A DNA stretch of 63,611 bases from Planctomycetia bacterium (GTDB lineage: Bacteria; Planctomycetota; UBA1135; UBA2386), in NCBI GenBank assembly GCA_005776475.1, contig SXPB01000020.1, forward strand, positions 1 through 63,611, read 5' to 3'. Positions within the stretch are counted from its first letter, which is position 1. Every line of letters starts with the position of its first letter. Below, in pieces: positions 973-59,228 of the stretch. The position numbers were made by a program, and so were the translations under genes. Under the pieces are notes generated by a model. That model did no database searches, had not been told where the DNA came from, and saw only the letters and a program-made list of their open reading frames with translations.

Positions 973-3081
973 ATGCCCCACACGCCGACCATGCGAGCAA
1001 TGTTCGCCGCGTTCGCCCTCGTCTGCACCGCATCGGCGCAATGCATCGATCCGCCAATGCCGCCCGGTGGCTTTCCCGTCGTGTCGGCGATCGACCAGCT
1101 GGTGACCTTCACCGACCAGTACCGAACGCGGACCGACGTTCGCTGGCCCGGCGTCGCTCCCGGCACCTGCGGTTGGCCGATGCTGTTGATCGTGCACGGG
1201 TTTCCAGCCTCCAAGAACGGCCCCGTTGCGGCGATGGCTGCCGAGTACGCGGCGCGTGGCTTTCTGGTGGTCTGCTATGACGTGCGCGGGCAGGGTTCGG
1301 CGATTGGCCTGAATCCGGGACGCGGCACCGGACTCATGTCGTTGGCCGAGTGGATCGACATGTTCGAAGTGATGGAGTGGGCCGAAGCGAACTGGCCTGC
1401 GAACGTCGACTTCGCGCGCATCGGCGTCACCGGCATCAGCCAGGGCGGCGCGCACTCGTGGGCGGCAGCAGCCTACTCCGGACGGTTGCCACCGCCGAAC
1501 CCGCGCCGCAGCGCGGCGTTTCCCGTCGTGCGCGCGGTGGCGCCTACCGTGATGGTGCCGAGTCACAGCGATGCGGCGACGTTCGACGGCACGGCATTCG
1601 TGGACAGCTGGGCCCAGCTGTCCTACGCGACGCCCAATCCGACTCTCGCGTTGGATGCCGCGTTCCAGCAGACGATGCGTTCGTTCGTGCTCGCCGACGA
1701 TCCGGTCGGGATGCGGGCGTGGATGCACGCCGATCCGGGGCGCGACTTCCAGGCACTGCTGGCCACGTCGACGACGGCTGTGCTGGCGACGATGGCGTGG
1801 CACGACGATTCGATGGCAGTGAACCCGGTGTTGCGCGCGTTGGCGCAGATGCCGGCGAACACGCCGCGCCGCGCGTTCTTGACCACCGGCCACCACGGCA
1901 CGCCGGGCAACACGTGGGAAACGGCGCGCGTCGATGAAGTGCGGCGGGCGTGGTTCGACCGCTTCCTGCGCAACGGCGTCGAACCGGTGGAATTGGGGCC
2001 GCCGGTGCTGATGTCGTGCATTCCGCCGACCGCCAGCGAATACCTCGCCGCGTCGACGTTGTGGCGACACCGCGCCGAGACCACGTTCCTGCCGCCGCCG
2101 GCCGTTTCGACCACGTACTACCTGCGGCAGGGGGCCGTTCTGTCGACGTCGGCGCCGACGCTCGCCGAACCGCCCGAGTCCGTGCAGCACACGATGCCGC
2201 CGGGCTACGACCTCCTCGCGTGGCGCGCCGATGGTGCGGGCTCGAACCTCACGCTCGCGTTGCAGCGCATGCCGTTGTCGAGCCACTCGTTCACCACGCC
2301 ACCGTTCGCGCAGGACACCGAAGTCGCCGGGATTCCGCTGTTGTCGCTCGAAGTCACGGCGCAACAGGTTCGCTTCCAGTTGTCGGCGCGGCTCGAAGTC
2401 GTGCCGACCAGCGGCACGCCGCAGGTGATCGCCCAAGGTGGGATCGGCGTGCGGCTGCCAGCAGCGCCCGGGCCCGCCACGGTGACGATCGAACTGTCGT
2501 CAACTGCTTGCGTGGTGCCCGCGGGAGCGCGGCTGCGTCTGTCGGTGCGCAACCACTACCTGGTGAAGGCGGCGGCGGTGGATTCGTTCCGCACGTTGCC
2601 TCTGTTCGTGCCGTCCACGGTGCTCGTCGAGCATTCGCCCGGAATGGCGTCGCGGCTGATGCTGCCGCTGCGCGCCGAACCAGGACTCGATGCCGTCACC
2701 TCGACCCGCGACGTGCTGTTGTCGCAGCCAGCCAACGCGACGTTCCAGTTGCGGTCGTCGCCGTTGCGCGCCGGTGCGGCGTACTGGCTGCTCGGTTCCC
2801 TGGGCGGGCAAGGTCCAGCCTCGGTCCTCCCCGGCGGCAGTACCCTGTATCTGCAAGTCGACGCCCTGACGGCCGCGTTGCTGGACCCCAACGGCAATCC
2901 GCTGTTCCCGGGTTTCGTCGGCGTGCTCGATGCCGCCGGTTCGGCGACGGCGACGATGGCGCTGGCACCGGCCGCGCCGCTGCCGGCGGTGCTGGCTGGC
3001 TGGCACGTGCACTTCGCACCGGTGGCGCTGCACAACGGCGCCGCGTTCGCGGGGCCGCCGCTCGAACTGGTGCTCAGGTAG
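973..3081 (+). CDS. Secreted alpha/beta-fold hydrolase (S9/S15 peptidase-like, CocE/NonD-type) ending in a Cys-less copy of the shared C-terminal module
   Basis: Lies inside ORF 517-3081. ATG 973 (alternative 991) precedes the signal peptide MRAMFAAFALVCTASAQC. LLIVHGFPASKNG ... VVCYDVRGQGSA and the nucleophile elbow GVTGISQGGAHSW are present, followed by a long beta-rich C-terminal half. The last ~120 aa (2719-3078) align with the module seen on five other proteins. Confidence 0.6.
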   Translation: MPHTPTMRAMFAAFALVCTASAQCIDPPMPPGGFPVVSAIDQLVTFTDQYRTRTDVRWPGVAPGTCGWPMLLIVHGFPASKNGPVAAMAAEYAARGFLVVCYDVRGQGSAIGLNPGRGTGLMSLAEWIDMFEVMEWAEANWPANVDFARIGVTGISQGGAHSWAAAAYSGRLPPPNPRRSAAFPVVRAVAPTVMVPSHSDAATFDGTAFVDSWAQLSYATPNPTLALDAAFQQTMRSFVLADDPVGMRAWMHADPGRDFQALLATSTTAVLATMAWHDDSMAVNPVLRALAQMPANTPRRAFLTTGHHGTPGNTWETARVDEVRRAWFDRFLRNGVEPVELGPPVLMSCIPPTASEYLAASTLWRHRAETTFLPPPAVSTTYYLRQGAVLSTSAPTLAEPPESVQHTMPPGYDLLAWRADGAGSNLTLALQRMPLSSHSFTTPPFAQDTEVAGIPLLSLEVTAQQVRFQLSARLEVVPTSGTPQVIAQGGIGVRLPAAPGPATVTIELSSTACVVPAGARLRLSVRNHYLVKAAAVDSFRTLPLFVPSTVLVEHSPGMASRLMLPLRAEPGLDAVTSTRDVLLSQPANATFQLRSSPLRAGAAYWLLGSLGGQGPASVLPGGSTLYLQVDALTAALLDPNGNPLFPGFVGVLDAAGSATATMALAPAAPLPAVLAGWHVHFAPVALHNGAAFAGPPLELVLR

Positions 3082-4621: not shown

Positions 4622-6082
4622 ATGCTCCACGCAATCCACTTGCGGTATCTCCCGTTGCTCTCCGCGTTGCCGTACGCCGTCAGCCTGTTTGCCGACGCGG
4701 CGTCCGCCCAGTCCCTGGTGCGCTCCGTGCCCGCCTTCTCGCCGCCGGCGCTCGATGGTGCGCAGATGGCGTACGACCTGGGGCGTCTGCGTGGCGTCCT
4801 GTTCGGTGGGCTCGCGCTTGACCCCGTCCTGGGCTTCAACTCATCCGACGCCACCTTCGAGTGGGACGGCCAGGCGTGGAGCCTGGTGCAGGCGACGGTG
4901 CGCCCGCCGGGTCGCACGTACCACACATTGGGTTACGACGGCACGCGCACGATCCTGTACGGCGGGGTCCAAATCACCGGGCTCACGTTCCAGGAACTCG
5001 GCGACACGTGGGCCTTCGACGGTGTCGCCTGGACCCAGCTCGCACCGGCCTTGTCGCCGCCAGCGCGCGGCGGTGCGTCGATGGTGTACGACGTGGCGCG
5101 CGGCCGCCTCGTGCTGTTTGGCGGTGCGGACACGAACCAGTACTTCAATGACACCTGGGAGTGGGATGGCGTCACGTGGACCTTGCGTTCGCCGGCCGTG
5201 AGCCCGCCAGTGCGGGCGAACGCACATCTCGTCTATGACCCCCTGCGCAGCCGTATCGTGCTGTTCGGCGGCAGTGACTTTTCCTCCACCGCAGGCCCCC
5301 AGTTGCTGCAAGACACGTGGGAGTACGATGGCGTCACGTGGGCGCAGGTTTCGACGGCGACGTCGCCGCCGACCCGCATCAGCGGCAACCTCGACTTCGA
5401 TCTGCTCAGCAGCCGCGCTGTCCTGGTGGGCGGTTCCGACTTGAACGGGACCCTGGCGGACGCGTGGGCCTACGACGGCACGAATTGGAGCGCACTGACG
5501 CTCGCGAACGCGATCTCGATCGCCGGCAGCGCGCACACCTTCGATCCCTTGCAGCAGCGCGTTGTCTACTTCGGCGGGGTCTCGTTCGATCCGTCCTCGC
5601 CAAGCCCGACCTCGGGCCCGATCGACTTCACGCTGTTGTTGGTGCCCGGCCCCGCAAGTGCGGCGTACGCGTCGTTCGGTGCGGGATGTGACGGCACCGC
5701 GGGCAACGTGCCGGTGCTGGCCGCGGCGCCTTACTCGCTGCCGGTCATCGGAACGACGTTCGCCGCGACGATCGACTACGCGCCCATCGCGGCGCCGGTG
5801 GCCGTCATCCTGATGGGCTTCAGCAACACCACGTGGGCCGGCGGCGCCTTGCCGTTCAACCTGTCGGTGTTCGGCATCGGCGGTGGTTGCAACCTCCTCG
5901 TGGACCCTGCAGCCGCCGCGGTGGTCGGCAATGGCACCGATCCGGCGGTGTTCCGCTTCTCGATTCCGCTGGACCCGCAGCTGACGGGGATCGTGTTCCA
6001 CAACCAGGCGTTGGTGCTCGACACGTTGGCGACCAACGGCCTTGGCGGCCTGACGAACGGGTGCACCGCAACAGTGCAGTGA
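4622..6082 (+). CDS. Secreted Kelch-repeat beta-propeller protein with the shared C-terminal module
   Basis: The signal peptide ends ADAASAQ. Five to six Kelch units are visible: LFGG...ATFEWDGQAW, LYGG...GDTWAFDGVAW, LFGG...NDTWEWDGVTW, LFGG...QDTWEYDGVTW, LVGG...ADAWAYDGTNW. The C-terminal module is at 5663-6079. Confidence 0.75.
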   Translation: MLHAIHLRYLPLLSALPYAVSLFADAASAQSLVRSVPAFSPPALDGAQMAYDLGRLRGVLFGGLALDPVLGFNSSDATFEWDGQAWSLVQATVRPPGRTYHTLGYDGTRTILYGGVQITGLTFQELGDTWAFDGVAWTQLAPALSPPARGGASMVYDVARGRLVLFGGADTNQYFNDTWEWDGVTWTLRSPAVSPPVRANAHLVYDPLRSRIVLFGGSDFSSTAGPQLLQDTWEYDGVTWAQVSTATSPPTRISGNLDFDLLSSRAVLVGGSDLNGTLADAWAYDGTNWSALTLANAISIAGSAHTFDPLQQRVVYFGGVSFDPSSPSPTSGPIDFTLLLVPGPASAAYASFGAGCDGTAGNVPVLAAAPYSLPVIGTTFAATIDYAPIAAPVAVILMGFSNTTWAGGALPFNLSVFGIGGGCNLLVDPAAAAVVGNGTDPAVFRFSIPLDPQLTGIVFHNQALVLDTLATNGLGGLTNGCTATVQ

Positions 6083-6284: not shown

Positions 6285-9200
6285 ATGAACCCGCTCGCCA
6301 TCAGCCAGCCTTTGGAGGTCGTGTTCCAGCGGTATGCCGCCACGGCCGATCCCGCCGCTTTGGCCGAGGTCTACGAGCGACAGGCGCCACGATTGACGGT
6401 GTTGGCGGCGCGGTTGGTGAGCAACCGCAGCGACATCGAAGACCTCGTACACGAGACCTTCTTGCGCGCGATGCGGGCGGCGGCGAGCTGCGATCCGACG
6501 CAACCACTGAGCGGATGGCTGTACGGCATCCTGCGCCGCGTGGCATGGGAACGTTCGCGCCGAGCCCGCGAAGCACAACTTGCCTGCGACCCGCCAGACT
6601 GCGTGGGTGGTACGGAACCCATGTTCGCGGCCGAGGTCAGTGCCGCCATCGACCGGGCCCTGTTGCGGGTTCCAGGTCACTACCGCGAACTGCTACGGCG
6701 CCGGCTCATCGCGGGGCAGCGGGCCGTCGACATCGCCAACGAAATGCGCCTGCCGATCGCGACGGTGCGCTCCAAGCTGCAGCGTGGCTTGCGCATGCTG
6801 CGCGCGGCGTTGCCGTTCGGGCTCGCGAGCATGTTGTGCCTCGCGTTCGCGCCGCGGGCACTGGCGCAGGGCCAACGACGATTGGACCGCGCCTTGGCAG
6901 CGAAGCCGGCCCTGTCGATGACAGCGTTGCTGTTGCTCGCCGCCGCGCTGCTCGTACTCGCCGGCGGCTCCGTGTGGTTGCAGCATGCTGGGCTGGCGTC
7001 GTCGCCAGGTGCCTCGGTGCTGCCCCTGGTGGCAGCGACCGAAGACGTTGCGCCGAGCAAGGAGCCGCTGCTGTCGCGCGACGCCGCCGATTCGCAGGTC
7101 ATCCTGCGCGGGTTCATCGATGTCGGGACGGCGTACTCGTTCACGAATGCAGTACTCGTCGCCTTCGCGGCGCCCGTGGATCTCCTGATGGCGCGCCCAC
7201 CGATGATGGTCCTGGATCCGAACGAGCAGGAACTGGCCTGCATCGCCAGGCAATGCCTGCAGGGGCCGGAGTGCGGGCGGGCCCAGGTGGCCGCCGACGG
7301 CTCCTTCGAACTGGTGACGTCGCTGCGCGATGTCGTCCTGGATCTGCGTGACGACGTCAGTGGGCTGCTGTTGCCGATGGTTGCCCATGTTCCCGCGGGA
7401 CAACGCGAACTGCAGTTGCCGGTGCTGTTCGGCTACGTCGGCTGCCGTCTGCAGGGATTCCTGCCGGCGGGAGTGTCGCCAACGGAGGTCACGCTGCACT
7501 GCATGCCGGAGATGCACGATCCGTTCGCCGACGCCACGATCGTGCAGTTGGCGAGGGATCAGCCCTTGCGAGCCGACGTGGAAGGTCGGAGCTTCGTGTT
7601 CTCGGCAGTGTTGTTCTCGGGGGTGGCGACGGTCGTCGCGACGGACGTGCACGGCAACCGGTGGTACCAGTTCATCGACGGCGACGCTCCGGTGCGGCAG
7701 GTCGCGCCGCTGCAACAGGCGCGAGAGCGGCTCGAAGTGTGTGCGGCCGACCCGGAACTGGCCGGAACCATGGACTTGATCCACGAGCACGGGCTGCAGG
7801 TCGGCGCCGTCATGGTGGACGGTCGCGCCGTCGTCACCGACCTGCTGCCTGGCAAGTACCAGGGTGCACTGTGCACGCACGACGGCAGGACGATCACGTT
7901 CGAGGCCGATCTCGAGCGCTGTTCGCACGTGTCGTTGCCAGCAACCCAGGAACGCCAGTGCATCGGGATCGTACGGACCACCCGCAACCTGCCGGTGGCT
8001 GGGGCGCAGATCGTCACCCTCGATCCAAGAGCAAGGGGGGCGGTGGCGATTGCGACGACGGACGACGAAGGCGCGTTCTCGGTCACGGTGGGCGGTGCGA
8101 CGCAGTTGCTGATCGATGCCGGACACGGTCGGAAACAACTGGTCAGGCCCCGCGGTGACCGGCCCTTGCGCATCGAAGTTCCGGACCTGATCGCTGTGCG
8201 CGGGCGACTCCTGCTGCCGCCGGAAGAACGGGGCGCATGTTTCGGCTACGCGCTGATCCACGGCAGTGATGGTGAGGACATCGGTTGCGATCGGCGACCG
8301 GTGCGGATTGCCGCTGATGGCGGGTTCTGCATCGCCAACGTCGCGGCCACCGCGTTGCGGCTCGACCTGACCATTGCCGGCGTGGCCTCTGCCGGCGCCG
8401 AACTTCCGCGGCGTGCGGTCGACAACGACGAATGCGACCTCGGCGACCTGCAGGTGCAGAGATGGGTGGCTGTGCGTGGGCAAGTGTTCGATCCGGAACA
8501 GCGACCCGTCGCCGGCGCCTTCGTTGCCGTGTTGCCGCCTGGCATACCGGAACAGCGCAGCACGCGAGCGCGGCTCGGCCGAACTGCAGCCGATGGCACG
8601 TTCACCCTGATGGTGCCGCCCGACAACTCCGTCGATGTGATTGCCCACGATCGCGGGCACGCCATGCGATGGCGCGGGTCGATGGAGGCGAGCGAGCGCA
8701 TCGTGCTGCAACCGCTCGGAGCAGTCACCGGCCGTGTCGACGGGAGCCTGCCGGGTGGTACCGGCGTGCTGCTGCTCAGCCCTGAGGGCATCGTTCGCCT
8801 CGCGCCGATCGCGCGCGACGGGTCCTTTCGTTGCGTTGGCCTGCCGGCGGGCGACTACCGCCTTTCGCTCGTCAAGGCCGACCAACCGTGCATCGGTACT
8901 GCTGCACGCCAGGTGCGGGTTGCCAGTGGCGAGACGGTTTGGGTCGAGTTCGCCGGCAGCGTACCGGTGGCGCGCCTGACGCTGGAGCTGACGTCACCGA
9001 TCGTGCCGATGGCGGACCTCATGGTCGTGCTTCAGTCGAGTGATGCGAGCGAGCCGCCGGTGCTGCATCCCGCGTGCGAATCGTCGGAGTTCGAACTGTC
9101 ACCCGGTGAGTGGACGGTGCAACTGGTGCGGTGCGACGGACTGCCGCATGGTCTGGGTCGTCGGCTGCGCCTTGCCGCTACCGCAGCGAAGCTGGCCATC

Positions 9201-9671
9201 ACGCTGCCGACGACCGCGGTGCGCGGACGGTTGCTCGGTCCTCGAGGCGATGCGGCCACGGTGTTGGTCGTGCCCAAGCACGCCGATTGGGTGCCGGTGC
9301 CTGCGACCATCGCCAACGACGGCACCTTCGAACTCGGAGGCGTCGACCCCGAGCAGGTCTCGCTGTTCGCCGTCGACCCGAGCCGCGAACCCGCGCTCAG
9401 CGGTGTTGCGGCTGGCACGAGCAGCCAGCTGTTCCTGCAGCCGGCGGGTTGGCTGGAACGGTCGCCGTCTTGCGATCCATCGCATCCGGTTCTGTTGAAA
9501 GCATGCGATGGCCTTTGCTTCGACGTCGAGTTGCCGCGCGACGAGCGCACCGGTCGTGTCCTGCTGCCAGCGGGCGTGCTCGACCTCGTCGTCGGCACGA
9601 CCTTGCGCCAACACGTCGTGGTCGGCGCCGGTCAAAGCGTGGCGATTGCCGCGGGCCCGGTGGGGCGCTGA
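6285..9671 (+). CDS. ECF sigma factor fused to transmembrane segment(s) and a ~900-aa domain of carboxypeptidase-regulatory-like beta-sandwich repeats
   Basis: Sigma region 2 is DIEDLVHETFLRAMRAA and GWLYGILRRVAWERSR. The region 4 HTH is YRELLRRRLIAGQRAVDIANEMRLPIATVRSKLQRGLRML. Hydrophobic FGLASMLCLAFAPRALA and ALSMTALLLLAAALLVLAGGSVWL follow. Repeats then appear, such as VRGQVFDPEQRPVAGAFVAVLP...DGTFTLMVP and VTGRVDGSLPGG...DGSFRCVGLPAGDYRLSL. Confidence 0.7.
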   Translation: MNPLAISQPLEVVFQRYAATADPAALAEVYERQAPRLTVLAARLVSNRSDIEDLVHETFLRAMRAAASCDPTQPLSGWLYGILRRVAWERSRRAREAQLACDPPDCVGGTEPMFAAEVSAAIDRALLRVPGHYRELLRRRLIAGQRAVDIANEMRLPIATVRSKLQRGLRMLRAALPFGLASMLCLAFAPRALAQGQRRLDRALAAKPALSMTALLLLAAALLVLAGGSVWLQHAGLASSPGASVLPLVAATEDVAPSKEPLLSRDAADSQVILRGFIDVGTAYSFTNAVLVAFAAPVDLLMARPPMMVLDPNEQELACIARQCLQGPECGRAQVAADGSFELVTSLRDVVLDLRDDVSGLLLPMVAHVPAGQRELQLPVLFGYVGCRLQGFLPAGVSPTEVTLHCMPEMHDPFADATIVQLARDQPLRADVEGRSFVFSAVLFSGVATVVATDVHGNRWYQFIDGDAPVRQVAPLQQARERLEVCAADPELAGTMDLIHEHGLQVGAVMVDGRAVVTDLLPGKYQGALCTHDGRTITFEADLERCSHVSLPATQERQCIGIVRTTRNLPVAGAQIVTLDPRARGAVAIATTDDEGAFSVTVGGATQLLIDAGHGRKQLVRPRGDRPLRIEVPDLIAVRGRLLLPPEERGACFGYALIHGSDGEDIGCDRRPVRIAADGGFCIANVAATALRLDLTIAGVASAGAELPRRAVDNDECDLGDLQVQRWVAVRGQVFDPEQRPVAGAFVAVLPPGIPEQRSTRARLGRTAADGTFTLMVPPDNSVDVIAHDRGHAMRWRGSMEASERIVLQPLGAVTGRVDGSLPGGTGVLLLSPEGIVRLAPIARDGSFRCVGLPAGDYRLSLVKADQPCIGTAARQVRVASGETVWVEFAGSVPVARLTLELTSPIVPMADLMVVLQSSDASEPPVLHPACESSEFELSPGEWTVQLVRCDGLPHGLGRRLRLAATAAKLAITLPTTAVRGRLLGPRGDAATVLVVPKHADWVPVPATIANDGTFELGGVDPEQVSLFAVDPSREPALSGVAAGTSSQLFLQPAGWLERSPSCDPSHPVLLKACDGLCFDVELPRDERTGRVLLPAGVLDLVVGTTLRQHVVVGAGQSVAIAAGPVGR

Positions 9672-10350: not shown

Positions 10351-11979
10351 ATGCGAAGAACCCCTTGGATTCTGCTCTTGGCTTTGGCGTCGGCTGGCAA
10401 CGCGCAAATCCTGCCGCACGGCTTCGTGGTCGAGACGTTGGCGCCGAACCAGGTCGGGCCGACGAGCCTGGACTTCCTGCCCGACGGGCGCGTGATCTTC
10501 GTCGAGCAGAACACGGGCGCCGTGAAGGTGCTCTGTCCTACGGGTGGCAATGCGGTGGGCACGCTCGGCCAGGTGCCTGGGCTCGTCGTGTCGTACAGCC
10601 GGGGGTTGCTCGGTGTCGCGGTCGACCCGCAGTGGCCGTCCCGCCCGTTCCTCTATTGCTACCACACGAATGCCGCGGCGGCGGACCTACGCATCAGCCG
10701 GTTCACGGTCACCGGGGACCTCGGGACTCCCACCAGCACGAACCTGCAGCTCGGTCCGGCCTACACCGTGTTGGCTGGCTTGCCCGACGTGACGCCGTTG
10801 CACGAGTCCGGCTGCCTCCGGTTCTCGCCCGATGGCACGCTGCTGTGCAGCGTCGGCGATGACACCAACGCATGTGCCGCGCAGAACGTGACCGTGGGGA
10901 ACGGCAAGCTGCTGCGCCTCAAGGTCGACCTGCTGCCGTTCAACGGCAGTGGTCCGCCCACGCTCGCGCTGATCACGCCGCCTGGCAACCCGTTTCCCGG
11001 ATCCGCCGGCCTGGCGCCCCTGGTCTACGCGACCGGCATGCGCAATCCGTTCCGCTTCCACGTCGACTCTGCGAACGGCGCCATCTTCGTCAGCGACGTC
11101 GGCGAGCTGCAGAAGGACGAGATCAACCGCATCGACGCGCCGGGCTACAACCTCGGCTGGCCGTGGCTCGAGGGCGACGTTCCGTACACCACGTGCAGCG
11201 GTTCCGCGCCGAGCAACACGCTCGTGCCGATTGCGATGCAACCCGTCGGTCCGCAGTTCACGGCGCTGATTTCGCTCGGTGTCTATCGCACGCCGAACAA
11301 CCCGACGTGGCCGTTCGGCGCCAGCTACGAAGGCGACTACTTCTACACCGAGCACTTCTCCGGGCGCATCTGGCGCCTGCGTGACCAGGGCGGGTGGTGG
11401 GACATCGCACCGCCGGTGCCGGGCCAATTCTCGAGCACGCTCTGGGGCTCGGGCGTGTTCTGGATCGTCGATGCGAAGTTCGGGCGCGACGGCGCCCTCT
11501 ACTTGTGCGAACGGGTCTCCAGCACCAGCGGCAGCGTGCGCCGCATCCGCCCGACGGGCGCGACCGCGGTTGCCTTCGGTCAGGGCTGCGGCGGCAGCTT
11601 CGGCACTGCGACGATGGCTCCTGCTGCCGGCTCCCTGCCAACGCTCGGGAGCACGTTCCAGACGGTGGTGTCCAACCTGCCGTTGCCGCCCGCCGGACTG
11701 AGCGTGGGCGTGATGGGATTCTCGAAGACCACCTGGGGCGGAATCCCGCTGCCGCTCGACCTGGGCGTGCTCGGCATGCCGGGCTGCACGGCCTGGGCCG
11801 CGCCCGAAGGCCTGGCCGTCCTGCCGCGCGTCGGCACGACCGCGACGTTCACGTTGCCGCTGCCGAATGGAACCGGCCTCATCGGCCAGGACTTCTACCT
11901 GCAGACCCTCGTGCTCGACATCGGTTGGAACCCGTTCGGCGGCGTCGTCACCAACGCCGTCGAGTGCGTGATCCGGTAG
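10351..11979 (+). CDS. Secreted glucose/sorbosone dehydrogenase-like (PQQ-type GSDH) beta-propeller protein with the shared C-terminal module
   Basis: The signal peptide is MRRTPWILLLALASAGNAQ. Family motifs are FLPDGRVIFVEQNTGAVKVL, GLLGVAVDPQW, HESGCLRFSPDGTLL, GKLLRL, YATGMRNPFRFHVD and GYNLGWPWLEG. The module is at 11566-11976. Confidence 0.7.
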   Translation: MRRTPWILLLALASAGNAQILPHGFVVETLAPNQVGPTSLDFLPDGRVIFVEQNTGAVKVLCPTGGNAVGTLGQVPGLVVSYSRGLLGVAVDPQWPSRPFLYCYHTNAAAADLRISRFTVTGDLGTPTSTNLQLGPAYTVLAGLPDVTPLHESGCLRFSPDGTLLCSVGDDTNACAAQNVTVGNGKLLRLKVDLLPFNGSGPPTLALITPPGNPFPGSAGLAPLVYATGMRNPFRFHVDSANGAIFVSDVGELQKDEINRIDAPGYNLGWPWLEGDVPYTTCSGSAPSNTLVPIAMQPVGPQFTALISLGVYRTPNNPTWPFGASYEGDYFYTEHFSGRIWRLRDQGGWWDIAPPVPGQFSSTLWGSGVFWIVDAKFGRDGALYLCERVSSTSGSVRRIRPTGATAVAFGQGCGGSFGTATMAPAAGSLPTLGSTFQTVVSNLPLPPAGLSVGVMGFSKTTWGGIPLPLDLGVLGMPGCTAWAAPEGLAVLPRVGTTATFTLPLPNGTGLIGQDFYLQTLVLDIGWNPFGGVVTNAVECVIR

Positions 11980-20587: not shown

Positions 20588-22963
20588 ATGCGAGTGTTGT
20601 CAGCGGCATCGCGTGCGTTGATCTCGGCGGTTGTGGCCGGCGCGTGGTTGGCTCTGGGTTGCGTGGGCGGTTGCAGTGGTGGTGGCGCCGTCGCTGGCCC
20701 GGCGACGCCTCCCGTGGTCGCCGGCCTCGCCGCTTCGGGACTCGATGCGCGCAGCCGTGGTCTCGTGTTGCTCGACGAACTCGGCTGCGTTGCCTGCCAT
20801 GCGCCGACGGGAACTCCGGTGGCGCCGCCCGCCGTGGCGCCCGGCCCCGATCTCGTCACCGTCGGCAATCGCGTGCGCCCGCAGCATCTTGCGCACTTCC
20901 TCGCCGACCCAGGCCACACCGAGCCGGGCACCACGATGCCCGCCCTGCTCGGCGACCTCGGTGACGCTGCCCGTGCGGTCGCGGCAGGGCAGCTGGCGGC
21001 ATACGTGCGCTCGTTCGCGCCGCCCGCTGCCGAGCCCGTCGCCGAACCTGGGGATGCCAGGGCGGTGGCGCGTGGCAAGGAGCTGTTCGACGCGATCGGG
21101 TGCTCGATGTGCCACGCTCCGCGCGACGACCGTGGCGCCGAGTTGCCCGTCGCTGCGTCGGTGCCGATGGCGCCGCTGGCGGCGAAGTACTCCTTGCCGG
21201 CGCTGCGAACGTTCCTGCTGGCGCCGCTGGCGGCGAGGCCGCACGGGCGCATGCCCGACCTCGGGCTCGCTCCGGGCGAAGCGCTCGACCTGGCGCACTT
21301 CCTGTTGGCGGCGCCGCCAACCGACAAGCCGGCCGACGCGCCAATGGCGATGTCCGAAGCGAACGTGGCGGCCGGCCGCGCCCTGTTCGCCGAACGCGGC
21401 TGTGCGCACTGCCATGCCTTGCCGGATGCGGAGCGGCCGGTCAGCCGAACGCACAAGCCCCTGCGAGAACTCGATGCCGCGCGCGGTTGTCTGACGGGCA
21501 CGAAGGGCCCGTGGCCCGGCTATTCGCTGTCGACCCAACAACGCAGCGACGTGGCGAGCGCGCTCGCCACGCTGGCGGCGCCACTGGACGACGAGGTCCG
21601 CATCCGCCAGCAGCTCGCCGCCCGCAACTGCATCGCGTGCCACGCCCGCGACGACTTCGGCGGCATCAGCCAGGCCCGCAATCGCCTGTGCACCAGCAAC
21701 GACCCGAGCATCGGCCACGAGAGTCGGTTGCCGCCGCGGTTGACGGGAGTCGGCGCCAAGCTGCAGCGCAGCTGGCTGCACGCTGCGATCGCGCACGGCC
21801 AGCGCGAGCGTCCGTACCTGAACCTGCGCATGCCCGCGTTCGGCGCCGCGTTCGCCGAAGGCCTGACGGAGTTGCTGGCGCGCACCGACTCGTTGCCGCC
21901 GTTCGCCCTGGCGCCGTTGCCCGAAGACGACAAGGCCCGTCGCGCGGTCACCGACCTCGGCCGCACGCTGGTAGGGGACAAAGGCATGAACTGCATCGCC
22001 TGCCACACCTTCGCCGGCCAACAATCAGGTTCGCTCGGCGCGATCGATCTCGTCGCCTCCACCGGGCAGCGGCTGCAGCCGCAGTGGTTCGCGCACTTCC
22101 TGCGCACGCCGCTTCGCTTCAGCCCGAACACGGTGATGCCGCAGTTCTTTCCCGACGGCAAGACGACGCGGCCCGAACTCGGCGGCGGCTCGACGCAGGG
22201 CCAGATCGAAGCGATGTGGCACTACCTCGCCGAAGGTCGCAACGTCGGCCAACCGAGCGGCATGCGCCGACCGCCGATCGAGTTGACGGTCGGTGACGAA
22301 GCGGTGCTGCTGCGGCGCAGTGTGCAGAACACGGGCAAGCGTGGCATCAGCGTGGGACTGCCGCGCGGCGTCAACCTCACGTTCGATGCGGAGCGGCTCG
22401 CCATGAACCAGATCTGGTGGGGCCCGTTCGTCGATGCTGCGGGCGTGTGGACGTCGCAAGGCCACGGCCAGGCACGCATTCTCGGCAAGGAACGCGTCGC
22501 ACTGCCGGTGGAGCCCGCCGTGGCGCTGCTGGCGGCGCCGGACGCGGCGTGGCCCGGTGCGACCCGCCGCGAACTCGACCAACGCTGGCTCGGCTACGAC
22601 CTCGATGCGCAGCAGCGGCCGACGTTCCGCTACACGTGCGGAGACGTGACGATCGAGGATGGCGTGCGCGAAGTGGTCGCCGAGGGCGCCGCCGAGGGCG
22701 CGCGCCCACACCTGCGCCGGACGCTGCGGTGCAGTGGGCCGGGGACGACGACGCTGACGTTCCTGGCGGCGCGCGATGCCCATGTGGAACAGCTCGGCCC
22801 TGACCTCGTGCAGGTGGGGGCCACGCTGCGCCTGCGGTTGCCGGCCGGCACGTTCCGCATCCACTCCGCTGGCGACGCCCGCGAACTGCGGATCGCCATT
22901 GCTCGCCCCGAGGGTCGCGGGGAACTCACCGTGGAGTACCAGTTCGTGGAGGGCGGCAAGTGA
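20588..22963 (+). CDS. Lipoprotein-like protein with five c-type cytochrome (CxxCH) domains plus a ~300-aa C-terminal beta domain (PVC-type)
   Basis: In ORF 20519-22963. ATG 20588 gives MRVLSAASRALISAVVAGAWLALGCVGGC (lipobox-like LGC). Heme motifs are CVACH, CSMCH, CAHCH, CIACH and CIACH. Confidence 0.65.
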   Translation: MRVLSAASRALISAVVAGAWLALGCVGGCSGGGAVAGPATPPVVAGLAASGLDARSRGLVLLDELGCVACHAPTGTPVAPPAVAPGPDLVTVGNRVRPQHLAHFLADPGHTEPGTTMPALLGDLGDAARAVAAGQLAAYVRSFAPPAAEPVAEPGDARAVARGKELFDAIGCSMCHAPRDDRGAELPVAASVPMAPLAAKYSLPALRTFLLAPLAARPHGRMPDLGLAPGEALDLAHFLLAAPPTDKPADAPMAMSEANVAAGRALFAERGCAHCHALPDAERPVSRTHKPLRELDAARGCLTGTKGPWPGYSLSTQQRSDVASALATLAAPLDDEVRIRQQLAARNCIACHARDDFGGISQARNRLCTSNDPSIGHESRLPPRLTGVGAKLQRSWLHAAIAHGQRERPYLNLRMPAFGAAFAEGLTELLARTDSLPPFALAPLPEDDKARRAVTDLGRTLVGDKGMNCIACHTFAGQQSGSLGAIDLVASTGQRLQPQWFAHFLRTPLRFSPNTVMPQFFPDGKTTRPELGGGSTQGQIEAMWHYLAEGRNVGQPSGMRRPPIELTVGDEAVLLRRSVQNTGKRGISVGLPRGVNLTFDAERLAMNQIWWGPFVDAAGVWTSQGHGQARILGKERVALPVEPAVALLAAPDAAWPGATRRELDQRWLGYDLDAQQRPTFRYTCGDVTIEDGVREVVAEGAAEGARPHLRRTLRCSGPGTTTLTFLAARDAHVEQLGPDLVQVGATLRLRLPAGTFRIHSAGDARELRIAIARPEGRGELTVEYQFVEGGK

Positions 22964-27116: not shown

Positions 27117-27133
27117 GCTCGCGTCACGCGAGC
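27117..27133. terminator. 7-bp stem / 3-nt loop hairpin in the 36-nt convergent gap (possible bidirectional terminator)
   Basis: gctcgcg-tca-cgcgagc was read directly. The loop is the stop codon of the DUF1501 gene. There is no U tract, so the function is uncertain. Confidence 0.25.
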
Positions 27134-28530: not shown

Positions 28531-28532
28531 GG

Positions 28533-31001: not shown

Positions 31002-31089
31002 GGCGGCGGCCGATGCTACCTCGGCGCCGCGGCGCGCGGCCCCTCGCTGGGTGGGAATGCGCGTCGCCGGGGCCCGGCGGGACGGGTAA

Positions 31090-34300: not shown

Positions 34301-35923
34301 CTACTGCGCGCCGATCATCAGCAACGCGCCGTTCGACGTGATGAAGCCGAGCGGCGTCAGCGGCGGGCTGATCGAGATCGACTGCGTACCGACGATCACT
34401 CCGATCAGCGGCGCGGAGTTCGGCACCACGAGCGGCACCTGGGCGGTGCTGACCGGGTTGAGCCAGACTTCGTTGACGCCATCGAGCACGTAGGCAAAGC
34501 ACGTCGGCATGCCGATCACGGTCAGGTCGATCGGAGCCGGCGCCGGCGTCAGGGTCAGGATCGTGGCGCCGAGCGGCGTGCCCGCAGGGATACCCGAGGT
34601 CGTGATCTGCGCCGTGGTGCCGAGCACCGGCCGCGTGGACGTCAGGCTGAGGCCAAAGCAACCCGTGCCAACCGAGGCAACCGCTGCCGACAAGGCGCCG
34701 TTCGGCACTTCGGCGGGAACGACGACCGACAGCGCACCCGGGCCGACGCGGGCCTGGTCGATGACCACCGTGCTCGTCGTCGGCGCGACGGTCGCGTCGA
34801 ACCAGACGTTGTAGATGGTGTTCCAGTCGAGCGAGTTGGTGCCCGTCGCCATGAACGACAGCTCATTGCCGCTGCGCGACCAGGTCCAATCGTTGAGCGG
34901 GTTGCCGTCGATGTCGCGGAAGCCGACCGCCGTCAGCTGTGCGTCCGGGTGCAGCGGGAGCTTCAGCGACGCGCCGCCGCGGGCGTTGTCGATGTTGTGC
35001 ACCGCGTACTCGAAGTGGTAGACACCGTTGACCGGGCCGGTGACCTTCGATGCCACCAGGAAGCGGCCGTCGTCGAGGCCGTTGCCGGCCGTGTTGCGGA
35101 CCGAACCGGTCCACCGATTGAGCACCGAGCCCTGCACCGGCAGGCTGGGAGTGCCGGCCTGCCACGCAGTGCCGCTCCACGTGATGGGGAACAACTCCGA
35201 CAACTGGTTGTTGCCGCGGTTGGCGACCGGCTCGCCTTCGCAGACGAGGTGAACCTGGGCGTAGAACGTGCCGCCTTGGCTCAATTCACTTTCCGGAATG
35301 ACGCCGCGGTTCTTCAGCGCATCCCAGGTGTTGATCTGCGTGTTCGTCAACGATTGGGTGCCATCGGAAGCCGCAGGGCCGGCCACCGCGGGGTCGCCGC
35401 GGTCGAAGTAGCTGCCGACGGGATTCCAGCTGCCGGTCCACGGATCGAGTTCACTCGACGGGCCTAGGTTGAAACGGTTGCCGTTGAAGCCGGTGGTGTA
35501 GGCGTCGTAGCAGCCCATGCGGAACGTGCTCGTCGGCCCCGACTGGCAGGTGCCGCATTGGCTCGAGCCGAGGTTGTAGGTGACGCGCGAGTGCTTGACG
35601 AAGTTCTCCGACACCTTCACCTGGACCATGCGGCCGTTGCTTTCGCGGGCCAGCATGAACGCGATCTTGAAGTGCACGTCGGTCATCAGGCCGCCGGTCG
35701 TCGGCGACGTCGCCCACGGCACGTGCACGGTGCCGGCGTTGCAGAACGCATGGCCGAATCCGACCGCGACTTCACCATTCGGGTAGGCCGGGCCGCGGCG
35801 ACCGTAGATCGTGGGGCTGTAGACGTCGTAGAGATTGACGTCCGTGCCGGGAATCGCATTGGATTGCGCGGCGGCAATCGACGCGAGCGTGACGAGGGAC
35901 AGATTGGCGAGGGAGATACGCAT
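34301..35923 (-). CDS. Secreted protein with a ~390-aa N-terminal region of no recognised family plus the shared C-terminal module
   Basis: The signal peptide is MRISLANLSLVTLASIAAAQ. The module is at 34304-34684 (VGTGCFG ... GMPTCFAY ... VGTQSISI). Confidence 0.6.
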   Translation of the reverse strand: MRISLANLSLVTLASIAAAQSNAIPGTDVNLYDVYSPTIYGRRGPAYPNGEVAVGFGHAFCNAGTVHVPWATSPTTGGLMTDVHFKIAFMLARESNGRMVQVKVSENFVKHSRVTYNLGSSQCGTCQSGPTSTFRMGCYDAYTTGFNGNRFNLGPSSELDPWTGSWNPVGSYFDRGDPAVAGPAASDGTQSLTNTQINTWDALKNRGVIPESELSQGGTFYAQVHLVCEGEPVANRGNNQLSELFPITWSGTAWQAGTPSLPVQGSVLNRWTGSVRNTAGNGLDDGRFLVASKVTGPVNGVYHFEYAVHNIDNARGGASLKLPLHPDAQLTAVGFRDIDGNPLNDWTWSRSGNELSFMATGTNSLDWNTIYNVWFDATVAPTTSTVVIDQARVGPGALSVVVPAEVPNGALSAAVASVGTGCFGLSLTSTRPVLGTTAQITTSGIPAGTPLGATILTLTPAPAPIDLTVIGMPTCFAYVLDGVNEVWLNPVSTAQVPLVVPNSAPLIGVIVGTQSISISPPLTPLGFITSNGALLMIGAQ

Positions 35924-43879: not shown

Positions 43880-43955
43880 CGCCGGGTCATACTCTGCTGC
43901 CGGCGATCGACGCGAAGGACAACCTCCCGTTGCTCCGCTCGTTTCCCGGAGAACC

Positions 43956-44057
43956 ATGCCAACCGCCCTCCAGGCGTTGCGGCAGGAAGACGTGCGTCGC
44001 CGGGTCGCCGAGGCGGAGGCCGTGTTGCAGCAGCACAAGCGCACCGAACCGCGATGA
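43956..44057 (+). CDS. Possible 33-aa small ORF upstream of the methyltransferase operon
   Basis: ATG 43956 is preceded by GGAGA (43948-52). It encodes MPTALQALRQEDVRRRVAEAEAVLQQHKRTEPR, which looks helical and charged. I recognise no homology. Confidence 0.2.
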   Translation: MPTALQALRQEDVRRRVAEAEAVLQQHKRTEPR

Positions 44058-44131
44058 AGTAGCCGGCCGCCGCTACTCGCGCCGCCGCTACTGGTCTCAA
44101 GTCGGGACCTCCGCGTGTCGATGTTTGCAAC

Positions 44132-44767: not shown

Positions 44768-44791
44768 TGGTTGCTGCGGTAGTCTGACGCC

Positions 44792-45394: not shown

Positions 45395-45423
45395 AGGCGA
45401 AGCACTAGACTGGGAATGTCGCC

Positions 45424-53588: not shown

Positions 53589-55058
53589 TCAGTAGTTGCC
53601 CAGCTTGCCGTCGATGCCGTTCGCCGTGACCGCTCCGAACGCGTTGGCGCCGGGCACGAACACCGCCGCAGTCGTGAACAGGTGGTGGTTCGCGAGGGAT
53701 GGGCTCGGCGGAATGGCGAGCAGGTAGCTGTGCGAGGCACCGGTCGGCGCCCACGGGCTCACCACTTCCAGCGACGAGCGCAGGCCGCAGCCGGGCAGAC
53801 CCAGGAATGTGAGGTCGTCAAAGCCCGGATCGGTGAAGCCGAGGATGTCGACGCCGAGCGTGCCGGTCGCGGGAACGTTGGTCACGTTGAGCGACCAGGT
53901 CGAGCCGAGGATCGGGCGCGTCGCCGCCGTGAGCGTGAGCCCAGGCGCGTCGGCGGCTGGGAGAGTGAACGACGCCGGCAGCGCTGCCGAGATGTCGATC
54001 GCGCCCACATCGATGTTCGGGCCACCCGGGGAGTAGCCGACGAGGGTCGCCCAGATGGTGTTCATGCTCTGGTAGACCATGTGCACGCGGCCGTTGCTGG
54101 TGTCGAACTGGTACTGGAACGTGTTCGCGTGTGCGGGCGAGTTGCCCAGGAAGTTCCAGACGCCATCCCAGGTCACGATGGCCTTGGCGCCGACCTGCTC
54201 GAACTTCACTCGACCGCCGGCCGGGATCGACGGGTCGAAGTCGTTCCACGTCCACCAGGCGGTTCGCATGGCGTCGAGGAATTGCTGGGGCCCGCCATTG
54301 GTGGAAGCGCCGTTGCCCACGGCAATCGACACGACGCCGTTGGAGTTGATGGTGAGAGCCGTGGTCGAGCCGCCTGGGAATGGCATCGGCGCCGCCAGCA
54401 GCACGGTGGCTTCGGAGTCGTCCCCCAACGCCAGCACGGTTGCTGCCGCGGACGGCGGCACATAGCTCGAGGTCCCGGGTTGCACCGAGTAGTTGCCGCC
54501 CGACGGGACCATCGTGATCGACGTGTAGTCGAGGTCGAAGTTCGCGCTCGAGAAGACTTCGTAGAACGACGCCGACTGGCGGATGCAGCCGTTGCCGAGA
54601 GTCGTGTTGGTGGCTGCGGTGCCGACAACCGGACCGCTGATGTTGAGCGGGAAGCTGCCGGTGGCGCCGCCGAAGCCGCCGACGCGCACGAAGTAGGTGT
54701 CGGCGACGACTGGCACCGAAACCGACGAGGCGGTGCCGCACGAGTCGTCGTTGCAGCCGAGGCTGGTGAGGCTGCCACAGATGCCTCCGAAGACCTGCAG
54801 GGTGGTGTCGAACGAGGCGCCGCAGGTGCTTGCGGTCAGCGTGCCGGGCCCGTTGGTGACGACGGTGAACCACACGTCTTTGCTGCCCGAGCCGCAGGGC
54901 CAGACCGGCGCCGAGTTCGTAGCGCCGACGTTCGTGAACGGCCCGTTGGTGCCCGGGTAGACCATCAAGGCCCCCGAGCACTCGTTGTTCTGGGCAAGCA
55001 GGGAACCCGCCAGTGCAATGCTGACGGCGAGGGAGAGAAGGCGGGTGAACGTTGTCAT
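53589..55058 (-). CDS. Secreted protein with a Cys-rich N-terminal domain, a NIDO-like middle domain and the shared C-terminal module
   Basis: ATG 55058 lies in ORF 53589-55670, with signal peptide MTTFTRLLSLAVSIALAGSLLAQ. The N-terminal domain is NNECSGAL...WPCGSGSKDVWF...STCGASFDTTLQVFGGICGSLTSLGCNDDSCG...YFVRVGGFGG. The middle domain has FYEVF..FDL...LGDDS..PFPGGST.L.INSNG...TWDGVW...FQYQF. The module is at 53592-53984. Confidence 0.6.
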   Translation of the reverse strand: MTTFTRLLSLAVSIALAGSLLAQNNECSGALMVYPGTNGPFTNVGATNSAPVWPCGSGSKDVWFTVVTNGPGTLTASTCGASFDTTLQVFGGICGSLTSLGCNDDSCGTASSVSVPVVADTYFVRVGGFGGATGSFPLNISGPVVGTAATNTTLGNGCIRQSASFYEVFSSANFDLDYTSITMVPSGGNYSVQPGTSSYVPPSAAATVLALGDDSEATVLLAAPMPFPGGSTTALTINSNGVVSIAVGNGASTNGGPQQFLDAMRTAWWTWNDFDPSIPAGGRVKFEQVGAKAIVTWDGVWNFLGNSPAHANTFQYQFDTSNGRVHMVYQSMNTIWATLVGYSPGGPNIDVGAIDISAALPASFTLPAADAPGLTLTAATRPILGSTWSLNVTNVPATGTLGVDILGFTDPGFDDLTFLGLPGCGLRSSLEVVSPWAPTGASHSYLLAIPPSPSLANHHLFTTAAVFVPGANAFGAVTANGIDGKLGNY

Positions 55059-57317: not shown

Positions 57318-59228
57318 TCAGGGGCAGATCACCAGGTCGACGCCGTTACTCAACGTGAACGGCACGTCGAACAGGCCCTGGAAGACGACGCGCAGGCCGA
57401 CCAGCGGCGGTGCCACCGGAATCGGGATCGGCAAGATGCCGGTGCCGGCGGCGTCGGTGCCGATCGGCACCAGCGTCACCAGGAGGCCCGGATCGACGAC
57501 CAGGATGCCTTGCGGGTAGGTGATGCTGGCGCGCGCCAGCGACAGCGCCAGCAAGCCCGTCGTCGACGGGCCCGCCTGGCTCCACGTGAACGTCGCCGTG
57601 CCGCCGGCCGACGTCGTGCCCGTGGCCGCGAGCAGCGACGAGTTGCCGCCGCCGAGGCCGAGCGCGTACTGCTGCAGGCCGCACACGGTGACGTTCTGCT
57701 GTGCCGACGTCGTGGCGTTGCCGCGCAGGTCGGTTGCGGTCAACGAGAACGACAGCGTGGAGCCGTTCATCACGACGGCCGGGGGCGGCGTGAAGTCGGC
57801 GCGATAGAACAGGCCGCCGCGGAACGTCAGCGGCGTGCTGCCGGTGGTGACGCCGGCGAGGTGCGTGATCGACCAGTTCATCACCACCGAAGCAACCGAC
57901 GTTTCGCCGTCGTCGACCGCCGAATCCTGCACCACGGCGCGCACCACGAACGGGCCGTTCGGATTCGTCGACACCGCCGGCAGCTGCTCGATGCGCACGA
58001 AGCGCGGCGGCTGCGTGTCGGCGGGGCCGGTGCCGTAGTAGGCGCGGTTCAGGAACGAACCCGACTCGCCCTGTGCGGTCACCATGTCGAACACGCCGTC
58101 GTTGTTGAGGTCGCCGACCGCGACGTCGAGTGTGCTGTCCACCAGCGGCGAGAAGCCGGCCGTGCCGGTTTGCCGCGCGAACGAGAACGCGCCGTTGTTG
58201 ACGTAGAGCTTGTCGCCGTTGCTCTGCAGCGAGCCGTTGACGATGTCGAGCCAGCCGTCGTTGTTGGAGTCGACGAACACCCATTCGTTGTCGTCGTCGC
58301 CGTTGCCGCCGGTCAGCGCCGTGGTCAACGACGTGAACGACAGCGTGCCCGACGGCACCAGGTTGTTGCGCAGCACGGTGTCGGTGAGGCCCGACACCGA
58401 CAGCATCGTCATGTCGAGGTCGCCGTCGTGGTCGAGGTCGGCGGCTTCGCCTTCGTAGGTGAGGCCGGTGCCGGCCGGCAGCAGTGCCGTGGTGAAGGTC
58501 AGGAAGTGGCCGGTGCCGTCATTGAAGAAGATCTGCTGGCCCGACGACTTGCCGAAGTTGATCACGTCGAGGTCCCAGTCGTTGTCGATGTCGCACAGGA
58601 CGACGTCCTGCTGGTTCGACTTCGGCGCCACGGCGACGCGCGTCGCGGTGGCGTTGGTGAACACGCCCGCCCCGTTGTTCATGAACAACTTGAGCTGGCC
58701 GCTGGCCAGTTCGTCGTTGAGGAACAGGTCGTAGTCGCCGTCCTGGTCGACGTCGCCATAGGCGCAACCGGCCACGGCGATGTTGAGCGCGCCCAGCCGC
58801 GCCACCGACTCGTCGGTGAACACGCCGGCGCCGTTGTTGACGTAGACACGCTGCTGGCTCGGGCCGTTGCACGAGAACACCAGGTCCTTGTCGCCGTCGC
58901 CTTCGATGTCGAAGGCGATCACCAGCGTGCCCTTGATCGCGAGCGTCGGCAGGCGCGTCGCGGTTTCGTCGACGAGGCCGAGGCTCTGGTTGATCTTGTT
59001 GATCAGGATCGTCGGTTGGATCGCCGAGCCCGAGGTCGACAGCACGTAGCCGTTCGCGAACACGACGTCGAGGTCGGTGTCGCCATCGACGTCGACGAGG
59101 ACGCAGCCTTCGGACATCACCGTCGGGCCGGTCACGAGACCGACTTGTTGGGTGTAGCGGTATTGCGCCGGCAACGCGGCCAGCAGCACGAGCGGGGAGA
59201 GGGAGGCGAGCAGCGACGTGATCTTCAC
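57318..59228 (-). CDS. Secreted FG-GAP/VCBS repeat (integrin-alpha-like beta-propeller) protein with the shared C-terminal module
   Basis: The signal peptide is MKITSLLASLSPLVLLAALPAQ. Seven Ca-binding-like loops are present: DVDGDTDLD, DIEGDGDKD, DVDQDGDYD, DIDNDWDLD, DLDHDGDLD, DSNNDGWLD and DLNNDGVFD. The module is at 57321-57689. Confidence 0.75.
   Translation of the reverse strand: MKITSLLASLSPLVLLAALPAQYRYTQQVGLVTGPTVMSEGCVLVDVDGDTDLDVVFANGYVLSTSGSAIQPTILINKINQSLGLVDETATRLPTLAIKGTLVIAFDIEGDGDKDLVFSCNGPSQQRVYVNNGAGVFTDESVARLGALNIAVAGCAYGDVDQDGDYDLFLNDELASGQLKLFMNNGAGVFTNATATRVAVAPKSNQQDVVLCDIDNDWDLDVINFGKSSGQQIFFNDGTGHFLTFTTALLPAGTGLTYEGEAADLDHDGDLDMTMLSVSGLTDTVLRNNLVPSGTLSFTSLTTALTGGNGDDDNEWVFVDSNNDGWLDIVNGSLQSNGDKLYVNNGAFSFARQTGTAGFSPLVDSTLDVAVGDLNNDGVFDMVTAQGESGSFLNRAYYGTGPADTQPPRFVRIEQLPAVSTNPNGPFVVRAVVQDSAVDDGETSVASVVMNWSITHLAGVTTGSTPLTFRGGLFYRADFTPPPAVVMNGSTLSFSLTATDLRGNATTSAQQNVTVCGLQQYALGLGGGNSSLLAATGTTSAGGTATFTWSQAGPSTTGLLALSLARASITYPQGILVVDPGLLVTLVPIGTDAAGTGILPIPIPVAPPLVGLRVVFQGLFDVPFTLSNGVDLVICP

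Follow-up and report, generated by a model that had tools for sequence, protein, structure and literature searches.

Among described systems, one of the closest parallels to the module that we report here is the C-terminal domain (CTD) of Bacteroidota type IX secretion (T9SS), which is a 7-stranded (3+4) Ig-like sandwich of about 70-100 amino acids that sits at the C-terminus of many cargo proteins (PMC11285876). SLH domains, dockerins, and the PEP-CTERM, LPXTG, and GlyGly-CTERM signals also invite comparison. Our module comes from a 63.6-kb stretch of DNA from a Planctomycetia bacterium (contig SXPB01000020.1), and by "the window" we mean this whole stretch. The window has 69% G+C and matches an 84-kb metagenome contig in the ENA (ERZ27257034 k141_734076). 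A sequence-only reading of it had proposed that six otherwise unrelated secreted proteins end in the same module, as a candidate sorting or anchoring tag. We found that four of them (a Kelch-propeller protein, a GSDH-like propeller protein, a 540-amino-acid protein, and a Cys-rich, NIDO-like protein) end in one homologous module of about 125-140 amino acids, that an FG-GAP protein probably does so as well, and that the sixth, a hydrolase, ends in a different module. The best explanation for our results is that the shared module is an autonomous extracytoplasmic beta-sandwich of about 135 amino acids, which one uncultured lineage has fused to many Sec-exported proteins.

As with the T9SS CTD, a single domain, here a predicted beta-sandwich, almost always forms the very C-terminal end of numerous Sec-exported proteins that are otherwise unrelated, it is lineage-specific, and there seem to be dozens of copies per genome (for our module, this figure is extrapolated). 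Signal peptides also appear to expose an N-terminal Gln in both lineages. The module differs from the T9SS CTD in its size (about 135 amino acids and about 9 strands) and its conserved pair of cysteines, it has no sequence match to the CTD, and it is N-terminal in a few proteins. We know of no T9SS in Planctomycetota. SLH domains and dockerins are similar in that one small module is found at either end of many extracellular proteins and is presumed to bind one common partner in the envelope or on a scaffold. However, SLH domains are helical and dockerins are EF-hand-like, whereas our module is an all-beta sandwich; the sequences are unrelated; and the module is present as a single copy instead of the triple repeats of SLH domains. 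PEP-CTERM, LPXTG, and GlyGly-CTERM signals are likewise C-terminal on diverse secreted proteins and lineage-specific, but they are short (a motif, a transmembrane helix, and a basic tail), while the module is a folded 135 amino acids.

The six open reading frames (ORFs) are present in the window as described, and each has an N-terminus that resembles a signal peptide. Most of the N-terminal domains that had been assigned to them held up: Pfam gives an S15/PepX_C hydrolase, Kelch (amino acids 77-319 of the Kelch-propeller protein), GSDH, and FG-GAP_3. The NIDO-like protein (53589-55058) has a weak match to PPC and nothing else in Pfam, and Pfam gives no domain for the 540-amino-acid protein (34301-35923). 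We ran a hidden Markov model (HMM) of the family, made from 135 sequences, on the six-frame translation of the window, taking all stop-to-stop ORFs. Its four matches are:

5660..6079, plus strand: copy 1, the C-terminal 139 amino acids of the Kelch-propeller protein (gene 4622-6082); HMM E = 2e-38
11560..11976, plus strand: copy 2, the C-terminal 137 amino acids of the GSDH-like propeller protein (gene 10351-11979); HMM E = 4e-48
34304..34687, minus strand: copy 3, the C-terminal ~127 amino acids of the 540-amino-acid secreted protein (gene 34301-35923); HMM E = 7e-25
53592..53975, minus strand: main body of copy 4, the C-terminal ~125 amino acids of the NIDO-like protein (gene 53589-55058); HMM E = 8e-27

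Beyond these four tails, no ORF in the window scored above noise with this HMM or with a 4-sequence HMM. By BLASTP, the Kelch and GSDH-like tails are 37% identical over 138 amino acids (E = 6e-18), and the other tail pairs that we found are GSDH-like with NIDO-like (1e-9), the 540-amino-acid protein with NIDO-like (3e-9), and GSDH-like with the 540-amino-acid protein (4e-8). Copy 2 is nearest to the family consensus. In all four tails, the significant HMM match includes the region of the GMPGC loop (discussed below). The HMM envelopes lie within a few residues of where the sequence-only reading had placed these four copies, and the five short motif blocks that it had picked out are real: in the family at large, no columns are better conserved. 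Copy 1, for example, contains FGAGC, LPVIGTTF, MGFSNTTW, and GIGGGC.

Copy 4 is unusual because its HMM match begins at around column 15, and the first strand, with the GxGC motif, is absent there. A similar motif is found further upstream:

54585..54599, minus strand: LGNGC motif, 215 amino acids upstream of copy 4 (verified in the window sequence)

In 13 of the 13 NIDO-type homologues that reach far enough upstream, [LY]GxGC is found 213-239 amino acids before the start of the HMM match. The simplest reading of this conservation is that a NIDO-like domain was inserted into the module. The sequences suggest that the insertion lies after the first strand, giving a split module, and LGNGC is a candidate for the displaced first strand and cysteine of copy 4.

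Six apparent copies in one window had been taken to imply a large family genome-wide, and the family is indeed large. In an exhaustive search of 1.84 billion cluster representatives (50% identity clusters) with a profile of the four window tails, 9,403 representatives matched at E ≤ 1e-3 and 4,258 matched at E ≤ 1e-10. Word-based protein searches returned few matches (5, 36, and 5), so we take the size of the family from the exhaustive search only. To describe its phyletic distribution, we scanned one genome per species for a single 10-residue pattern, Wx[GT][IV]PLPLDL. The phyletic picture rests on this pattern, which is present in just 8% of family members. The scan found 49 loci in 31 metagenome-assembled genomes (MAGs), with up to 6 loci in one MAG, and the labels of all 49 loci read Planctomycetota, planctomycete, or "uncultured bacterium." Wherever a source is named, it is a MAG of uncultured Planctomycetota, and cluster look-ups gave only "Planctomycetota bacterium." The MAGs come from hydrothermal sediments, wastewater plants, groundwater, and the water of lakes and rivers, and the freshwater CL500-15 lineage is among them. 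A second or third module gene is present in ten of the 49 six-kb loci. Because the pattern is found in only 8% of members, we extrapolate that there would be dozens of copies of the module per genome. The family is very large, and so far it has been seen only in uncultured Planctomycetota. Searches of the literature on C-terminal sorting in Planctomycetota, on planctomycete Kelch and FG-GAP proteins, on CL500-15, and on Saltatorellus turned up no account of the module.

The structure of the isolated module was predicted confidently as a beta-sandwich. For the copy from the GSDH-like protein, AlphaFold2 with a 37-sequence alignment gave an all-beta sandwich with a predicted local distance difference test score (pLDDT) of 96.5 and a predicted template modelling score (pTM) of 0.89. 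The model has 137 amino acids and about 9 strands plus a long loop. The most conserved stretch of the family, W-x-G-x-P-L-P-L-D-L-x3-G-M-P-G-C, makes up this loop, which includes a short helix and connects strands of the model. Conservation is strongest in the loop and not in the core. One cysteine of this stretch, C74, never varies, and at least 90% of the family have C8 (in F-G-x-G-C). This suggests a disulfide from the N-terminal strand to the loop; judging from the conservation, the Cys pair (a bond between the GxGC strand and the GMPGC loop) probably braces the module.

We did not find a known relative of this fold. Foldseek against the PDB gave nothing at E ≤ 1e-3, and its best matches were NIS1, NPC2, and antibody V domains, with template modelling (TM) scores of 0.3-0.5, identity of 15% or less, and E of at least 1.9e-3. 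These matches reflect only a generic resemblance to Ig-like and ML beta-sandwiches (NPC2, the fungal effector NIS1, antibody V domains), which share the general sandwich architecture, and are evidence neither of homology nor of a common function. A sequence-profile search of the PDB had its best match to a DUF3992 protein (E = 0.17), which we dismissed as not significant.

The sequence searches of known families were also negative, and the searches of Pfam-A, NCBIfam, and PDB sequences leave the module uncovered by any characterised domain. Thirty-five diverse module sequences had no match in Pfam-A (2025), and the tails of all six window proteins had no match at E ≤ 1 in Pfam-A or NCBIfam. 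In NCBIfam 20.0, the six window proteins had no match in their tails, including to the sorting-signal models. The module had been judged not to be like PEP-CTERM or LPXTG, and we agree, as there is no model match and no terminal hydrophobic helix: the tails end in ...[IVLF]-G-x-x, which is not what is expected of a sortase-type signal. It had also not been recognised as a T9SS CTD, and no Pfam or NCBIfam model for that domain matched the tails at E ≤ 1 (TIGR04183/PF18962, Por_Secre_tail, for type A and TIGR04131 for type B). T9SS CTD structures are not among the top 50 Foldseek matches in the PDB. Within the DNA covered here (the 63.6-kb window and the 6-kb loci), none of the scanned window genes matches a T9SS component (SprA/Sov, PorK-N, PorU/PorV).

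The fifth tail is more divergent:

57321..57689, minus strand: copy 5 (probable), the C-terminal 123 amino acids of the FG-GAP protein (gene 57318-59228)

Pairwise BLAST of this tail against the other tails gave nothing significant, and a metagenome scan for its relatives found none. Comparison with a 35-sequence alignment of the family by hhalign gave a probability of 87.6% and E = 3.5e-6 over 66 columns that extend to both C-termini. With phmmer on a local database (2,926 sequences), the top matches of the tail were all modules, in register, with a best E of 3.9e-4. It scores 12.4 bits with the family HMM, while the maximum of 1000 shuffles was 8.9. Neither the GxGC nor the GMPGC cysteine is present in this tail; its Cys residues are at positions 3 and 122 instead. 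It is probably a divergent member of the family that has lost the canonical cysteines, as had been remarked earlier. The same remark had been made of the hydrolase tail, for which our tests do not support membership.

We assign the hydrolase tail to another recurrent and unannotated C-terminal module, which we call type 2:

2719..3078, plus strand: hydrolase tail, type 2, the C-terminal 120 amino acids of the S15/CocE-type hydrolase (gene 973-3081)

We rejected this tail as a member of the main family because its HMM score was 0.7 bits, with 140 of 1000 shuffles scoring as well or better, and hhalign gave only 3% and 0.2%. Thus, of the six copies that had been proposed, four are firm by BLASTP and HMM and one is probable, but the sixth is something else. 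The hydrolase tail shares 43% identity (E = 1e-12) with the C-terminal end of a protein that is otherwise unrelated (L031:329-706), and a metagenome scan found further relatives (L051-L060). The type-2 module is about 115 amino acids long, is predicted to be all-beta, and is mostly C-terminal on exported enzymes. It is C-terminal on the S15 hydrolase, a GH18 chitinase-like protein, and several proteins without Pfam domains, and it is internal in one endonuclease I-LTD protein. Its blocks are Y-x-L-L-G-S-x-S-G-x-x-P-G..L-P-L-N-x-D-A..G-V-L-D-A-x-G-x-A-T-A..L-x-G, and it has no Pfam match. An AlphaFold2 model of the hydrolase tail from 5 close sequences had a pLDDT of 51, which is too poor for a fold search.

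It is possible, from profile comparison, that the type-2 module and the main module are remotely homologous. A 10-sequence type-2 profile aligned to the family profile by hhalign with a probability of only 49.9% and E = 1.7e-4, with 98 columns in register. The order of their conserved blocks is similar (LLGS-S-G, LPLN-D, a strand that ends in LP, L-G, and SN near the end), but the type-2 module lacks the GxGC and GMPGC cysteines, and the sets of cargo differ (S15 hydrolase, GH18, and endonuclease I for type 2).

To understand what the main module might do, we surveyed its position in 155 homologues and, with Pfam, the cargo of 88 homologues of at least 300 amino acids. It had been described as invariably C-terminal, and this is nearly so: in 150 of the 155, just 0-3 residues separate the end of the module from the stop codon. 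The end itself has a fixed length: in 130 of these 150, the final [IVLF]-G is followed by exactly 1-2 residues. R or K is the last residue in 48%. The module is never duplicated within a protein. The exceptions to the C-terminal position are four proteins (P0063, P0065, P0066, and P0132, or about 3% of the top homologues) in which the signal peptide is followed by the module and then by other domains (CARDB-like, FG-GAP), and one subfamily, represented at five loci, in which an extension of about 45 amino acids follows the module (L024, L028 with two genes, L036, L047, and L049 with two genes). A few proteins of about 170 amino acids look like a signal peptide plus the module alone, although some of the short entries are fragments of longer genes. 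As a separate observation, the extension ends in G-F-V-Q-P-G-R-G-P-V-x-Q-L-x-[WY], and the aromatic last residue recalls the C-terminal signal of outer-membrane proteins.

Signal peptides are predicted for the carriers in the window and for most of the full-length homologues. In the window and in the family, these signal peptides almost always end in [A/S]-Q, and the same is true of most full-length homologues and of the type-2 proteins. At least 9 exported proteins in the window have such predicted ends (ASAQ, GNAQ, AAAQ, LLAQ, LPAQ, CIAQ, and GPAQ):

973-1050: signal peptide ending in [A/S]-Q
4622-4720: signal peptide ending in [A/S]-Q
10351-10415: signal peptide ending in [A/S]-Q
32052-32140: signal peptide ending in [A/S]-Q
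22960-23030: signal peptide ending in [A/S]-Q
35850-35923, minus strand: signal peptide ending in [A/S]-Q
54985-55058, minus strand: signal peptide ending in [A/S]-Q
59160-59228, minus strand: signal peptide ending in [A/S]-Q
56890-56963, minus strand: signal peptide ending in [A/S]-Q

Cleavage of these signal peptides would expose an N-terminal Gln. This pattern resembles the "Q-rule," which was reported as specific to Bacteroidetes (PMC5837995).

These results bring to mind a C-terminal secretion signal like the T9SS CTD, for an undescribed outer-membrane translocon, which might be cleaved or covalently attached. We consider this unlikely, although it would fit the extreme C-terminal position and the fixed length of the end, the presence of the module once per protein on diverse Sec-dependent cargo, and the restriction to one lineage whose genomes have many copies each (the pattern that covers 8% of the family gave up to 6 loci in a MAG). 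The beta-sandwich fold is also as in T9SS CTDs (PMC11285876), and Gln after the signal peptide is as in the Q-rule that accompanies T9SS biology in Bacteroidetes (PMC5837995). A strictly C-terminal signal is harder to reconcile with the four homologues that have an N-terminal module, with the apparent module-only proteins, or with the 45-amino-acid extension in one subfamily. There is also no match to a T9SS CTD model or among the top 50 Foldseek matches, there are no machinery genes nearby, and the T9SS is known solely from the Fibrobacteres-Chlorobi-Bacteroidetes (FCB) group (PMC12398890).

The cargo is diverse and exported, as had been claimed from the six window proteins; Pfam confirms the diversity in the 88 homologues, with domains that are typical of extracellular proteins. 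Kelch propellers are the cargo in 46 of the 88. The others include FG-GAP, BNR/sortilin, C-type lectin, PPC, GSDH, and CARDB domains, as well as M28 peptidase, GDSL lipase, PKD, and beta-helix domains. With so many Kelch proteins, and with a very short linker from the last blade to the module, the module might be a passive cap or stalk for beta-propellers (compare domain 3 of galactose oxidase) that spread with Kelch paralogues and has no common partner. This is very unlikely, as the module is also found on cargo that is not a propeller (lectin, PPC/NIDO-like, CARDB, peptidase, lipase, beta-helix) and its conservation peaks in the loop instead of the core. Nor is there a Pfam match to the family of the galactose-oxidase C-terminal domain: by Pfam, this E-set domain (PF09118) is absent from the Kelch protein in the window and from the 88 homologues.

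The hydrolases among the cargo (M28, GDSL) raise another alternative, which is that the module binds a ligand in the manner of a carbohydrate-binding module (CBM) or lectin and targets a substrate outside the cell (for example, a polysaccharide of algae or bacteria) and not the cell's own envelope. The size and beta-sandwich fold are typical of CBMs, the conserved loop has W, D, N, and Q, the module can be N- or C-terminal and is possibly found alone, and the window encodes a sulfatase and other glycan-use genes. But most of the cargo is non-enzymatic (Kelch, FG-GAP, BNR, lectins), and, in contrast to most CBMs, the module is never repeated in tandem and nearly always lies at an end of the protein. 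Also, there is no Pfam match to a CBM, and the top structural matches are to generic Ig-like/ML folds (TM scores of 0.3-0.5). We think that a ligand binder of this kind is unlikely.

We tentatively favor a role as an envelope-attachment or display domain that docks its cargo to one common partner, although we would not go so far as to call this probable. Our results show the homology, the size of the family, its restriction to one lineage, the predicted fold, the position, the diversity of the cargo, and the export signals. A single copy at the terminus of many exported cargoes, with a conserved loop and a fixed end, leads us to infer the recognition of one common partner; the disulfide, the loop as the recognition site, and retention at the surface are proposals as well. 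The N-terminal modules and possible stand-alone modules favor an anchoring or binding domain over a strictly C-terminal secretion signal. Since no signal for cleavage or machinery is evident and the module works N-terminally, we favor envelope attachment over the alternatives. We also count in its favor that several secreted proteins of periplasmic type in the window (DUF1501, PSCyt2/PSD1, sulfatase, and cytochromes) do not have the module. If this is correct, then the protein would be exported by Sec and its signal peptide would be cleaved; the module would fold in the periplasm or at the cell surface; and the conserved loop and the fixed-length C-terminus would dock the cargo to one common envelope partner, so that propellers, lectins, and hydrolases would be retained or displayed at the cell surface. 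The sorting or anchoring role in the original proposal, which is drawn from how the module is deployed, is plausible, but it should be put more softly given that the module is not strictly C-terminal.

Several observations weigh against envelope attachment. About half of the cargo among the top matches is Kelch, so the pattern may partly stem from a single family of paralogues that has expanded. A translocon that recognises the terminus would be an equally good fit to an end of fixed length. Across the 49 loci and the window, no gene family recurs beside the module genes, only paralogues of the cargo, and the analysis of neighbours yields no partner, receptor, processing enzyme, or candidate machinery.

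A broader idea combines several of these observations. The module could be the recognition domain of an undescribed outer-membrane pathway for secretion and attachment in an uncultured class of Planctomycetota, analogous to the T9SS but of independent origin, with the Q-rule alongside and with type 2 as a second tag. This is speculative, and we think it unlikely to be correct.

The rest of the window carries genes that are typical of planctomycetes and Verrucomicrobia, namely that for the sulfatase and these two:

28533-31277, minus strand: PSCyt2/PSD1 gene
27124-28767, minus strand: DUF1501 gene

The window also encodes cytochromes, along with the sulfatase and other glycan-use genes. Directly 3' of the Kelch-module gene is a fusion gene (6285-9671, plus strand) for a sigma-70 factor of the extracytoplasmic function (ECF) type, with regions 2 and 4 and an extension of about 950 amino acids that includes CarboxypepD_reg. 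A 251-amino-acid exported protein (56208-56963, minus strand), encoded downstream of a VF530-family gene and the FG-GAP-module gene, has Secretin_N as its sole domain, without the secretin pore domain. Finally, a 1309-amino-acid ORF (42023-45949, minus strand) has S15/PepX_C matches that are confined to its C-terminal half, and it overlaps plus-strand ORFs (44063-45966) with methyltransferase and Asp/Arg-hydroxylase matches. Its long upstream part is probably spurious, an extension due to high GC.

The cell envelope of Planctomycetota is unusual, and their protein export and surface display are little understood. The domain family that we describe is real, large, and not described in databases, while a shared terminal beta-sandwich tag is in itself a known kind of arrangement. 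Although the family comprises over 9,000 sequence clusters, Pfam, NCBIfam, and the PDB do not contain it, and it marks many surface or secreted proteins of abundant uncultured planctomycetes from freshwater, groundwater, and wastewater. Even as a mere binding domain, the module merits the definition of a family, and so does the type-2 module. If it is an anchoring or targeting tag, then it would allow the surface proteome of these planctomycetes to be predicted from sequence and would serve as a bait for the partner or machinery, and it would be a second and independent case, beside the T9SS, of a design in which a beta-sandwich tag is placed on many cargoes.

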